This document shows positions 42,001-48,000 of a stretch of 64,000 bases of DNA, in pieces. The stretch is from assembly GCF_013167455.1 (NCBI RefSeq), contig NZ_CP038328.1. One strand, written 5' to 3'. Origin of the DNA: Escherichia coli O157:H7. GTDB taxonomy: Bacteria; Pseudomonadota; Gammaproteobacteria; Enterobacterales; Enterobacteriaceae. The position numbers are program-made. The stretch's first letter is position 1, and each line of letters starts with the position of its first letter.

Positions 42001-45000
42001 CCAGAACGGGTAGGCAAAATAGAAGTGCTATCCGGCAGCTTCTTAATGAATCCAGTTCAAAGCCCTGTAAAGGAACAAGCCGCTTTTGCTGTAAAAAACG
42101 TTCGGCAAGAGTGACTAATTTGCTTTGTTCCTGTTCCGTCAGACACGTTAAAAGGGGGATCGATAGTGCTTCCTGCCAGGGAAGGGCAGTTTGATGTGCT
42201 GATTCTTGTACTTTCCAGGGCCACTTAATCATCGTTTTGCTCGCAAACTCGTCACTTGAACAAAATTGCACGGACAGGGACTGTTAAAATGCCAAATTTC
42301 CTGGCATCATGGCAACCATCTGAACGGAGAGATGCCGGAGCGGCTGAACGGACCGGTCTCGAAAACCGGAGTGGGGGCAACTCCACCGGGGGTTCAAATC
42401 CCCCTCTCTCCGCCAAAATTCAATCACTTACACATCATTAAGTCAGTGACAAAAATCACACTTGGAATTACTTGGAATATTTTCTTGGAATATTTTCAGG
42501 TAACGGGACATCAAGTGTTGGTGAAACTTTAACCTTCCTGTCATAGATTAGCACTTGCCCTTCGGTTTTGTGACCAGAGAAAAGTTGCTTATCCCGGCTG
42601 CTTCCTTCATAGTCTGAAATTCCTTTCGCCTTCAGATCATGAAAGGTGAAGTCGGTTAAAATACCTGAAATTTTGCCTGCGTGATTTCTTGCTTCTACCC
42701 ACATTTCGTTAAAGCCTTTGTACATATATCGGTTGCCGTATTGATTGCTGATTACATAGGCGGATGTTGGTAACTGTTTTGCTTTTTCGATCGCCGCCTG
42801 TAATCGTGGACTCCATGCTTTTATCTGTTTTTTCCCTGTTTTCCCTTGCTGGATAAAGATCCCGTCGTTTCCAATCTGCTCCCATTTCAGCGATAACACA
42901 TCGGAAACCCTCGCTGCACACAGATAGGCAATTTCCATTGCGATAAAAACAGGAAGAGGTGCAACGCTTAATACTGCCTGGTATTCTTTGTCGGTTACAT
43001 ATCGTTCGCGGTTTTTGGCCTTGAATTTACTTACACCTGCACATGGGTTAGCCTTCACGTATCCTCGCTCATACCCCCAACTATAAACGCGCGACATACT
43101 GCTTTTTTCATGGTTTGCCTGCGTTTTACTCTGCTCGCCTCTTTTGTCCATGTATCGTCTGATGTGCTCTGGTTTTACAGAATCGGCCAGCACCTTACCG
43201 AATACGGCCAGCAGCTTTTTTTGATGTTGCAGATAATCTTTTTGAGTTCTAGGACTAAGCTCGCTGTAATAGGCGCTGGCGAGAAATTTTTCCCACAAAC
43301 GCCCAAATGTCATTGCGCGATCGCGATGGTTAACCGTTTCTTCATACTTTTTCCATAATGCGGCTAAACCATCCTCGATTGCAGTTAAGGTTACAGATTC
43401 TCTGGATGTCGGTTTCCATACACTATATTTATTGGGGTATACCTTTGGCGGTAATTTTTCGTGTTCGGGATTTTTCCTTCGTCTTCCCATTAGATCGCAC
43501 CGAAATCAGGTTCAGCCTCACGTGGTGGTAAAGTTTTTATACAGGTAAACAGTTCCCGACTGACGATCGGTTTTCCACTACGATTGGTATAGAACGGAAG
43601 CCCATTTTTTATTAACCAGTTGCGCTGGTGGCTTGCATATTTGCAGCCCGTTAACGTTTGCAATTCATTTTCGGTTAAAAATATGCTGCTCATAGCTATA
43701 TCTCACAACCGCCGCTAACTATATGCCGTTAGCGGCGATCCGGGTTGAACATTAAAAATCAGCCTGACTCGGGAGCAGTTTTTGCCAGATGGCTGAAACG
43801 TATTTTGCCTGGTAACGCGCATCGTGCAGGGCGTTATGGCGTTCACCTTCGAATGGAATAGTCGTTCTTGCGTCGAAATCCATCACCAGTCCCAGAGCAA
43901 CCATCGTTCTTACATCGCGATCATTGGTGTAACGCCACGGGCAGGGGATCCCCTGCCGTTCATATGAACGGCGTAAAATCACGTTGTCGAAAGTTGCACC
44001 GTTACCCCAGACCTGAACAAAAAATTCACCGGAGTTTTCGTCGATAAATTCCCGGAATTGCAGCAGTGCATCATCCAACGTGATTTCATCGGTCAGAATG
44101 GAGGATTGTGCTTCGCGTGACTGTTTCAGCCACCACTTAATGGTGTCCCGATCGATGACCCCACCTGCGGTTTCCAGATCGATAGTTTTGCTGAATTCTG
44201 GCCCCATCTCTCCGGTTGCCGGATCAAAAAACTTACCGGCTATAGAGTTTATTGGCGCATCAGGATTTTTTCCCATTGTTTCAAGGTCAATCATCAGATG
44301 GTGCCACAACCTGCTGGTGGATGAGATTTCATGATGACCGTTCACTTTAATTAAGGGATTTGCTGTTTCGCCAGTTTTATTATCGCTGGCGTGATACTGA
44401 TCGCTGCCAGTGTTCTCCTTGTGCAGATGTTCAGTGCCTTCCATTTCCTCCGGATCATTTTTCTGAGCTTCAGCCTGATTCTCTTCATCGAATGTTTCCA
44501 GGTAGGTTGCGTTCCCCATCACCGCACCACAGTCAGGACAGTTGCCGCCACCGGTCTGACCGCATGCGGTGCAAACTTTTTCCAGTTCCTGTTGCACTGC
44601 TGGTTCTGGTTGTTGTTCTTCTGGCCCGTTTTGTTGCGTATCCGGGCTGTTTTGTTCCGCTTCTGGCTCATTTTGTTTCACGTTGGGCTGATTCTGGTCC
44701 TCAGCGTCGCGACTCTGGATCCCTTTCACCCATTTCGGATCATTCGGGTCGCTAATCCCTTCAACAAATTCACCACGTGATGCAGCAAGCAATTTATCGG
44801 CGTCAGGCTGGCTGATATTGGCTGCCTGCATAATTTTGTTTACTTCGTCAGCGGTAACTTTTACCGGCTCTGATTGTTCGGAATCTTCAGCGGTATCCAC
44901 ATTTTGCGGTAAGCCCGTGTATGTGCCATTTTTTCGGGCAAAATATTCTTCTTTTGAGATTTCGGTACCGCCGGCAGCCAGCGCCTTGTCCAGACCAGAA

Positions 45001-48000
45001 AGTTTGTTTGCCCTGCCGTATTTTTCCCCGCCCTTATCGGTAAAGACGAAATAAAATGGTCCTTCACGCTCTACAGATGGTTCAGCTTCCACCAGGATTT
45101 CATTTTTTTGAGTATCGGATTCTGCCGTCTCCACTGGAGCAGTTTGTGCTGCTGACGGCTGGAGAGCATCAGTAGAGCTCTGGTCTGTTTCTTCATGTTC
45201 AAACACGCCCTTTGTCGTCAGGTATTCACTGATATATTTGTTCAGTGCAACGGGATCTTTGTGAATATCGATCGGACGTTCGCGAACAAGGCCAAAAATA
45301 GTCTGACGGTCATAGCCAAGTGCTTCGGGCTGTTTGCGCATTGATGCTGAGATACGCTTCCAGTCTTCGCGATCCTTGTCGATAACCTCATTTGTCGCCC
45401 AGCGATGGATGGTACCGTCAATGTTTCCTGCATCCACATCACCGGGCCAGAGGGCGCAGGCCAGTTCATTGTCGAGTGTTTTCCATGTCTGTTTGTATTC
45501 GCGGCGAATGGCAACAGTGACAGCCCCGGTTTTTTCAGCAGCGTTTTCAGGGTTCTGTTGGTTGACTCTGGCGCGGGCGAGATCAACAACAGACGTGTAT
45601 TTTCCGGTTTCCTTGCGTTCACCTTCGCGACGTTTTTTCCAGATGCGCATCTCTGCCTGAATTTCAGGCCATTTAGCGCCAGGCTCACATTTATGCTTAA
45701 CCCACCCGATGGCATGCAGTTTAAGTTCAGGATACATGGCGTTAACTTCTGGCATTTTCATCAACGCTTCAACGATATGTCCGCCGAATGTTGCCATGTC
45801 TTCCTGTAGTAATTCCTGTGCGCTAATCACCATATCAACGGTGATGTTTTCGCATGTGTCGAATTTAACCAGGACTGCGTTCTGTACTTCAGGGGACAGC
45901 TTGTCAAAATTGACGTTCATCGGATCGGATTCTGGTTCGACCGGTACAAAGGAAGCTGACTCCTCATCCCAGCGGTTTTCCTGCATATATTCGGTATCCC
46001 AGGAATCGAGGGCAGGGCGGGGTATGCCGGGTTTATCCTCGCAGACAATAAATTTATAAGCGCAGTCCTGAGCTGCCGGGAATTGCTCCAGAAATTGCCA
46101 GTGAAATTTTGCGCGTGCGCGACGCTCATCACCGGCTTCAATGGCAGTGGCCACCGCAACAGCGCTATCTTCTTTTATGGCCTGTTCGTCAGGAATAGCA
46201 GCGCAAATAAAGATTTTACTCATTGTGTTTTAACCTCATTACAGATTTCAGGGTGAACGAATCCCTGCCATTGCTGGCATTTTTAATCCGTTGGTATGGC
46301 GTTAATATGGCTGGCGGGTTATCCAGCCGGTGTTTCGTTATTCAGGTACAGCGATACTTTTTTTACCGGTAGGCATTCACCAGAAATTTTTTGCTCGTCT
46401 CTTGCCTGGAGGCAGGATTCTTTACTGGCATAAATTCCGGTAATAACATTCTGTGATTCACCCGTTATAAGAAAAACCGTCATCACCAGTGCAAATGCTG
46501 AAGTCATTGACGTTCTCCGAAAATACCAAGTTTAATAAGGGCAATTCGGGAAAGAATGGAATTATCATTGAGCAGATAAGGCTCATATTTCCGCATATTA
46601 ATGGCATCCTCAGTAAACGCTTTATTACTGAGCAGAACACCAATATCAAAACAACCTTCAGACGTATTAACGTTTGGTAATAACGTTTCCATTATCGCGT
46701 CCTCAACAATGAATTTTGTGATGCAGTGCCTGGTGCCTCCAGGTGACGTTAACCAGTTAACAATTAACGTCGGGTTAGTTGATGCTCGTTACGCCAGTAA
46801 AAGACCGCCTTACTGCTTTAACTGTTCCGCGTGCGCATAGCCGCATTCACCGCATCACAAAATTCACTTTAAAAAGGGCGGATATCCATTTCCGCCGAAT
46901 CACCAGAAAAGTGATAACAGAGGTTGTTGTGGCTGGGGTGTCACTTAAGCGTATGGTCAACCTGACAACCCGGTGTCCTCAACGGGGGAAGGAATAACCC
47001 CGCCATACTTACCGCCGCGCCATTTCGCGGATTGCCACAACCAGAAGCGCACGGTCGAATTAAATTTAACGACGACCTATACAGAGAGACTAACTTCGCC
47101 GTGCGCTTTCGTGTTATGCCCTGACTTTTCAGGGTAAATTAACCTGTGGAAACCTGTTTTTACTGGCGCTAATCAGTTAGCGTTTCTTGCTAACCAGCGA
47201 TGCGCGCCAGCTTCGGTTTTAAACGTTTTACTTCTGGTATACGTCATCGCGGTAAACGTGCCGTCGTGGTTGGGGAATACTCCGCACACCAGAGATTCAT
47301 TGTTGCCAAGATTGAGCATATCCATGTTGACCTCATTTACCCTTAACGCCGGGTCGCGGAACTAAAAACCTGCTGCGCTGTTATACAAAGTGTTCCCGCC
47401 GTCATGTTCATACGCCTCGGGCTGGCTACTTAACCCCTGACCACTGCCGGGTAACTCGAGGTATTGCCCGACGTTCTGTGGGGCGAGGTAGGGTGGTATG
47501 TAATAAATCTAAAAGTATTTAGTTTTTCAGTCAAGGTAAATCTAGATTAATTTAAAAAAAAGGTCGGCATTGCCGACCTCAAGTAAAGGACGTGGCGGGT
47601 TATAAGTTGAACTGTACACCTTTTGCTACGGCAACAATTTTACACTCTGGTGTAAGTAAGGATGACTGATAGCGTGGATTGAGAGGGCTTAAATACACAA
47701 GCTTCCCATCAATAACTAATTTCTTTATAGTCATAGATGGTTCATTTTTAAGCGGATCCGGAACTATTACAGCGACGATGCTGCCATTTTTATAACTTTC
47801 TCCTGGCCTTAGGATCACAGTAGCACCAACTGGGATACTCGGTGATCCTGATGGGTTATGCATTGTGTCATCAGGCATTGAAACGGCAAAATCACCTTCC
47901 TCGACATCAAAGAATGTGGTGATTCTATCGACATTTCCCATTGTTTTCTCTCCTTTTAAGATTAGGAAAGAAATCGCCTCACCCCACGAAAGGTAGGGGA

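Follow-up and report, generated by a model that had tools for sequence, protein, structure and literature searches.

We analyzed a stretch of 64,000 nucleotides from Escherichia coli O157:H7 (contig NZ_CP038328.1 of assembly GCF_013167455.1), below called the window, and within it a minus-strand gene of a lambdoid prophage that encodes a protein of 823 amino acids. Judged by its sequence, this protein is a RecE scaffold in which the PD-(D/E)XK nuclease head has been exchanged, at a domain boundary, for a DEDDh exonuclease head. The reading frame of the original prediction, 823 codons from an ATG start at 43752–46223 on the minus strand, is borne out. The gene and the segments of its product are listed here, with pLDDT standing for the predicted local distance difference test score and dN/dS for the ratio of non-synonymous to synonymous substitution rates.

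43752–46223, minus strand: whole gene, 823-residue YdfE-type RecE-family protein with a DEDDh head, ATG start
45609–46223, minus strand: folded domain 1, residues 1–205 (alpha/beta start, then helices), distant homologue of RecE PF06630, pLDDT >90
45189–45506, minus strand: folded helical domain 2, residues 240–345, HTxxTLDxEIA...YI motif, dN/dS 0.09
44919–45071, minus strand: small folded beta-hairpin/helix domain 3, residues 385–435, GPFYF...RANK motif, dN/dS 0.09
44724–44918, minus strand: two helices and the conserved LLAASRGEFVEGISDPNDPKWVKG motif, residues 436–500, dN/dS 0.08
44574–44723, minus strand: low-complexity Q/E/P/N-rich linker, residues 501–550, predicted disordered, dN/dS 0.36
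44526–44573, minus strand: putative CxxC-x7-CxxC zinc knuckle, residues 551–566, low pLDDT
44304–44525, minus strand: acidic disordered tether, residues 567–640; RecE homology ends at residue 625 (RecE 591), the head-swap junction
43752–44303, minus strand: DEDDh 3'-5' exonuclease head, residues 641–823 (PF16473, DexA/Rv2179c-like), dN/dS 0.11

Domain anatomy of the YdfE-type protein

The window protein is 100% identical to WP_000034457.1, an "exonuclease" of E. coli O157:H7 that occurs in many O157:H7 genomes, and the profile of PHROG 2082 covers its entire length (1–823 of 823). Residues 1–255 share 89% identity with ydfE (b1577), a pseudogene of the Qin prophage of K-12. There, IS2 interrupts the gene after codon 255 and the rest of it is gone; the window copy is complete. 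For the database protein with the same sequence, precomputed Pfam annotation lists PF27430 (YdfE_N), PF27432 (YdfE_C) and PF16473, from which we took the first two, since they are newer than the Pfam models run on the window protein itself. We are highly confident that the gene is the intact ydfE of a Qin/Tritos-like lambdoid prophage at serU, with the anatomy and identity described here. YdfE-type proteins are abundant and catalogued, and their kind has been noted in recent literature, for which reason we rate this type of protein as already known.

The C-terminal ~200 residues had been predicted to form a DEDDh/DnaQ-like exonuclease, and they do match one. PF16473 (Rv2179c-like 3'-5' exonuclease) is found at residues 641–813 with an E-value of 3.6e-62 and 209.6 bits, against a cutoff of 27, and the match spans profile positions 1–177 of 177. 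The catalytic set is complete, consisting of D646 and E648 (IDLET), D746 (TFDNV), and H796 and D801 (HNALHD). These residues are kept in the eight relatives that we compared, except that P0122 is without the first motif and that P0270 has two substitutions. In P0270, a DEDDh-headed protein of 752 amino acids, Lys replaces the catalytic E648 and Ala replaces D746; because the equivalents of both residues are substituted, its head is probably inactive. For the window protein, the conserved catalytic set makes 3'-5' exonuclease activity of the head likely.

The preceding ~600 residues had been thought to match nothing recognizable, a view that did not hold. In BLASTP, residues 262–625 align with residues 278–591 of K-12 RecE at 38% identity (E-value 4e-59), and the last ~155 residues of this alignment, which include the CxxC-x7-CxxC element, are very similar. 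BLAST gives no RecE match for the first 260 residues. We compared this part by family profiles, built from 15 YdfE-type and 18 RecE-type N-termini. With hhalign, residues 2–260 align with RecE 3–274 over 238 columns (99.3% probability, E-value 4.7e-20); the first domain alone reaches 96.3% (E-value 1.5e-9), the first 100 residues 89%, and the control with a reversed template 0.1%. At the level of nucleotides, homology with recE covers codons 475–625 of the window gene, beginning within the segment of residues 436–500 and ending at recE codon 591. Searches of Pfam with residues 1–640, and of the Protein Data Bank (PDB) sequences with the N-terminal part, returned no match. Since BLASTP (262–625) and hhalign (2–260) both align the protein with RecE, the N-terminal region aligns essentially end to end with a RecE-type protein, at the level of profiles. 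By these alignments, residues 1–625 and the non-catalytic residues 1–591 of RecE from the Rac prophage are homologues. The nuclease domain of RecE has been assigned to residues 564–866 and its N-terminal part described as of unknown function (PMC11611040). The homology thus ends at the boundary of the RecE nuclease domain, hence the assignment as a RecE scaffold with a replaced head, and it leaves the role of the N-terminal region unexplained, because that of its RecE counterpart is itself unknown.

Phage records label homologues of the window protein "exonuclease VIII" or "exodeoxyribonuclease VIII". Together with the RecE homology of the N-terminal 625 residues, such names would suit a genuine RecE (exodeoxyribonuclease VIII), a 5'-3' recombination exonuclease. 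PF12684 (PD-(D/E)XK), which K-12 RecE carries at 615–850, is however absent from the window protein in the Pfam search, and phmmer with RecE residues 592–866 matches none of the DEDDh-headed members of the family. The NCBIfam RecE equivalog NF007259 yields 260.1 bits, where its cutoff requires 1269; the better of its two matched stretches is residues 453–625. Furthermore, no recT follows the gene: xis and int come directly after DEDDh-headed genes, whereas PD-(D/E)XK-headed relatives precede a RecT gene, found overlapping and directly after. We reject the identification as a true RecE, to which we assign virtually no probability, as refuted at the level of domain content.

Comparison with Rac RecE thus shows a CxxC-x7-CxxC element and an acidic tether in both proteins, and a DEDDh 3'-5' head in one versus a PD-(D/E)XK 5'-3' head in the other. 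The two differ further in that the window gene is without a RecT partner, in that the first ~260 residues are similar only at the profile level, and in that K-12 RecE has no counterpart of domain 3 (385–435). Both features that had been noted, acidic low-complexity stretches and a CxxC..CxxC element, are present. The protein is acidic overall (147 D+E versus 88 K+R), with net charges of -9 in the block 501–550 and -10 in the block 551–600. Q, E, P and N are frequent in both blocks, and residues 551–554 and 562–565 form the CxxC pairs. AlphaFold2 predicts disorder for residues 346–382, 440–456, 501–547 and 567–637.

Conservation of the gene and exchange of its head

Of 5426 complete E. coli genomes, 4796 contain matches to the gene, at a median of two places per genome, and in 3526 of the 5426 a match spans at least 80% of it. 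The top phage match is a gene of Tritos, with 87% nucleotide identity across the full length. Relative to Tritos, dN/dS is 0.07–0.11 in all predicted folded domains (0.07 in domain 1) and 0.36–1.13 in the predicted disordered linkers, and the putative zinc knuckle is 100% conserved. By the ratio of about 0.1 in the folded domains, the gene is functional.

The RecE-related scaffold has been combined with other C-termini. We surveyed its diversity by searching 1.84 billion representatives with residues 1–637 and mapping modules by phmmer. Only 248 clusters were recovered, so the family is narrow. The front part of its members is either YdfE-type or RecE-type (PF06630), and the core of residues 261–345 is the module shared most widely; domain 2 (240–345), whose counterpart is RecE 256–360, is the most conserved core of the whole family. 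The C-terminal heads are DEDDh, RecE-type PD-(D/E)XK, or tails without a Pfam match. We also considered the zinc knuckle as a family-defining feature and rejected it, because only 7 of 55 long family representatives carry CxxC-x7-CxxC (K-12 RecE has one).

A natural chimera, P0131 (L006:5001–7418), has the same RecE/DEDDh junction as the window gene and thereby confirms it. Nucleotides 1–1820 of this gene share 92% identity with K-12 recE, the resemblance reaching codon 591, and the rest is 84% identical to the linker and DEDDh head of the window gene. Its locus is a Rac-like early region (sieB, kilR, ydaE) without recT.

Such chimeras, the general mosaicism of prophages and the shared segment 475–625, which is a recombination junction, are what one would expect if the window gene were a non-functional, decaying relic of recombination between Rac-like and other prophages. 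Copies interrupted by insertion sequences, in K-12 and in strain NZRM4165, point the same way. The frame, however, is kept in the 3526 genomes mentioned above and also whole in viable phages, e.g., Tritos and HannyBb; dN/dS is raised only in linkers and the catalytic residues are intact. On these grounds we reject a decaying chimera, which has a very small probability. As to the interrupted copies, IS1203 splits the exonuclease gene in strain NZRM4165 and the neighboring integrase gene in PV15-279 (compared: NZ_AP018488.1 and NZ_CP032791.1). In the window both the integrase and the exonuclease gene are intact.

The largest group of tails without a Pfam match comprises 18 representative clusters (P0130, P0133, P0224 and others) that have a head of ~275 amino acids on a YdfE/RecE-type scaffold. 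An AlphaFold2 model of this head (pLDDT 82.6) has human RAD52 N-terminal domains as all of its eight best PDB matches (E-values 5e-7 to 7e-6, probability 1.00), with target template-modelling scores of 0.49–0.58. In addition, there is a sub-threshold match to Pfam Rad52 (E-value 0.0034). When the profile of the tail was aligned by hhalign with single Erf, Red-beta and RecT sequences, there was no signal, and a PDB sequence-profile search with the tail gave no match, so the assignment rests on the predicted fold and the sub-threshold Pfam match, which point to a Rad52-like head. Domain 3 of the window protein is found in relatives with this head. At two Rad52-headed loci (L007:5001–7337 and L008:5001–7445) a Sipho_Gp157 gene comes next and a separate exonuclease is lacking; L007 in addition has a Gam homologue upstream. 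In phages of Pseudomonas, Vibrio and Stenotrophomonas, the Rad52-like head is also found on its own. A 2025 survey of lambdoid recombination modules left "RecE-2 proteins without a nuclease domain" unexplained (Zheng et al., 2025, PMC12315714), and the Rad52-like-headed proteins may be these. Five further relatives (P0125, P0220, P0252, P0257 and P0267) have a C-terminal tail of ~260 amino acids (PHROG 26058) without a Pfam match, which would be a fourth type of head on the same scaffold. P0195 has a RecT-like segment in the position of the head.

Genomic context of the gene and Chi sites

The neighboring features of the prophage are the following.

42326–42412, plus strand: tRNA-Ser (serU), prophage end
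42468–43490, minus strand: tyrosine integrase, downstream
43490–43693, minus strand: DUF4224 excisionase-like gene, downstream
44313–44320, plus strand: Chi site GCTGGTGG, inside the exonuclease gene
46319–46507, minus strand: ydfD-like DUF1482 gene, upstream operon partner
46504–46692, minus strand: dicB, upstream operon partner
47534–47506: promoter-like site which, with a terminator-like site, lies after the repressor and before the leftward operon (consensus matches only)
47600–48259, minus strand: CI/LexA-type repressor (helix-turn-helix and S24 peptidase)

As had been predicted, the gene occupies the exo/bet/gam slot of a lambdoid early-left operon; it lies between the dicB and ydfD-like genes and xis/int. 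In O157:H7 genomes the prophage with the exonuclease gene sits at serU, adjoining mtfA and yeeJ. The order dicB-ydfD(DUF1482)-exonuclease gene-excisionase-integrase recurs in Qin, Tritos and vB_EcoS-689R5, which makes the window gene resemble Qin ydfE in its setting, dicB-ydfD-ydfE-(xis)-int. With two-component recombinases of the lambda Exo/Red-beta type it has the genomic slot in common and, presumably, the general area of DNA metabolism. It differs from them in its opposite polarity, its unrelated fold and the lack of an annealase or Gam partner.

At the window locus there is no annealase gene between the exonuclease gene and xis/int. Moreover, in 80 viral loci searched within 6 kb, we found no RecT, Bet/Red-beta, Erf, Rad52-like protein, lambda Exo, Gam or RecE-type nuclease. 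In the same 80 loci, dicB is linked in 78 and the ydfD-like gene in 75.

The part of the prophage that lies in the window, from 42468 to 64000 (21.5 kb), has seven Chi sites (GCTGGTGG) on the plus strand, at 43624, 44313, 48826, 54352, 56358, 62263 and 62848, and a single minus-strand site, at 54810. In the 42.5 kb of chromosome there are one on the plus and two on the minus strand. Lambdoid Rec modules, some of them with DnaQ-like 3'-5' nucleases, have been surveyed recently (Zheng et al., 2025, PMC12315714). Table 1 of that survey scores a Tritos class as having a nuclease and numerous Chi sites on the top strand, but no single-strand annealing protein (SAP), single-stranded DNA-binding protein (SSB) or anti-RecBCD function. 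This nuclease-only class is thought to depend on host RecBCD/RecA; the parts of the survey considered here do not describe the RecE-scaffold architecture. The window prophage likewise combines a nuclease with abundant top-strand Chi, and its module is free of genes for an annealase, an SSB or an anti-RecBCD function. Because of this nuclease-only gene content and the plus-strand Chi bias, it fits the Tritos-type class, judged on the 21.5 kb of prophage within the window.

Some further observations concern the surroundings. The spacer upstream of dicB (46692–47137, minus strand) shares 81% identity with the ydfC-dicF-dicB region of K-12, where the small RNA DicF is encoded; Rfam finds no DicF match in it at the gathering score. 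A terminator-like hairpin lies in this spacer at 46896–46877. Adjoining the prophage, an open reading frame of 2685 amino acids (32963–41020, minus strand) encodes a YeeJ inverse-autotransporter adhesin that is apparently intact. The copy in PV15-279 is annotated as truncated.

Possible roles of the protein and of its scaffold

Our overall account is that the gene encodes a RecE-family scaffold with a DEDDh head and acts as a nuclease-only prophage module; we put its probability at roughly 60%. Induction or infection would lead to transcription of the gene together with dicB and ydfD, as part of the repressor-controlled early-left operon. The head would trim nucleotides at free 3'-OH ends by two-metal catalysis, using D646, E648, D746 and D801 with H796, and its substrate would most likely be DNA. 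The N-terminal platform, connected to it by the flexible acidic tether, would deliver the head to the target that the platform of RecE uses, for which DNA ends, or recombination or replication intermediates, are our guess. The protein would not be one half of an exonuclease/annealase pair, and the phage would rely on host RecBCD/RecA. As for the role itself, we tentatively favor that the protein processes the 3' DNA ends of recombination or replication intermediates in such a RecBCD/RecA-reliant phage.

Several points weigh against this account. A literature search found no biochemical or genetic test of the YdfE protein. The 2025 survey notes that homologous recombination is usually inhibited by 3'-5' exonucleases (Zheng et al., 2025, PMC12315714), so that a pro-recombination role is not obvious. 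PF16473 is named after the exoribonuclease Rv2179c, and for this reason DNA and RNA as substrates cannot be told apart from the sequence. Finally, the 80 viral loci in which no annealase was found are close relatives (83–100% identity) with short downstream flanks, and phmmer with single sequences could overlook highly divergent annealases.

The family name, together with the label "3'-5' exoribonuclease" that many records of the Prokaryotic Genome Annotation Pipeline (PGAP) give to close homologues, would fit an enzyme that acts on the 3' ends of host or phage RNA. That name, however, comes from the family and not from any assay, and the scaffold and the genomic slot are typical of DNA recombination proteins. 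Moreover, the nearest solved relative by sequence is a DNA exonuclease: phmmer against the PDB sequences finds 8kel/8ken, an exodeoxyribonuclease of 227 amino acids, with an E-value of 1e-6, and Rv2179c is not among the matches at E-values of up to 1. The first residues of 8kel/8ken agree with T4 DexA as numbered in PMC12153337. We consider degradation of RNA improbable.

The likeness to DexA could instead suggest that the head selectively degrades modified DNA, e.g., DNA with 5-hydroxymethylcytosine (5hmC), of superinfecting T-even phages and shields the lysogen, as a prophage-borne anti-phage exonuclease of the HREX type. Defence genes are often carried by prophages, and the window gene is very common in E. 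coli genomes, both of which count for such a function. The head belongs to the Pfam family of DexA, with which it shares the catalytic DEDDh residues and which is its nearest solved structure. EcD, a stand-alone DexA homologue (HREX) of E. coli, degrades 5hmC-containing T4 DNA and protects against T4, and among bacteria, DexA homologues are reported to reach their highest abundance in Escherichia (Kang et al., 2025, PMC12153337). DexA and EcD, however, are stand-alone proteins of about 190–230 amino acids, whereas the window domain is the C-terminal head of a multidomain protein of 823. The platform to which this head is joined is of the RecE type and is found in other proteins with RecE nuclease or Rad52-like annealase heads, and the gene lies in the recombination slot of a repressor-controlled early-left operon, which is not a position expressed in the lysogen. 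W152 of DexA, a Trp associated with 5hmC recognition and necessary for activity on T4 DNA (PMC12153337), corresponds to T766 of the window protein in two independent alignments (HMMER and MAFFT), and to Y, C or W in relatives. A PADLOC search of the window protein gave no match. On balance, defence against modified DNA is unlikely; we favor DNA 3'-end processing over it, and rank it in turn above RNA degradation. Regarding EcD itself (HAK9828821.1), its primers indicate that it starts at the first catalytic motif (MIDTET); the primer sequence has no match in the viral or metagenome collections, and the gene may be synthetic.

With DNA 3'-end processing as the favored role of the head, we return to the scaffold. 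The N-terminal two-thirds of RecE could be a portable platform that prophages combine with at least four C-terminal heads for DNA transactions, a reading that we hold to be plausible at somewhat less than even odds. The four would be a PD-(D/E)XK 5'-3' nuclease with RecT next to it, the DEDDh 3'-5' exonuclease, a Rad52-fold annealase and a further head. Full-length RecE differs from its isolated nuclease domain, which it outperforms in linear-linear recombineering. If the platform reading is true, the platform has a function independent of the head, e.g., targeting to DNA ends or to a host factor, or oligomerization, and the natural head swaps are a ready experimental handle on it. Finding one scaffold on at least three kinds of head already offers a comparative route to the function of the RecE N-terminal region.

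For E. coli, these results concern a gene that most genomes carry, frequently in several copies, and that is regularly given the wrong name "exonuclease VIII". Its recognition as a RecE scaffold with a head of opposite polarity corrects this annotation. It also shows that prophages of this kind lack a phage-encoded exonuclease/annealase recombinase, in agreement with the richness of their genomes in Chi and with the reliance on host RecBCD that has been proposed. Finally, if the head acts like EcD, defence against phages with modified DNA would have a widespread source in such prophages.

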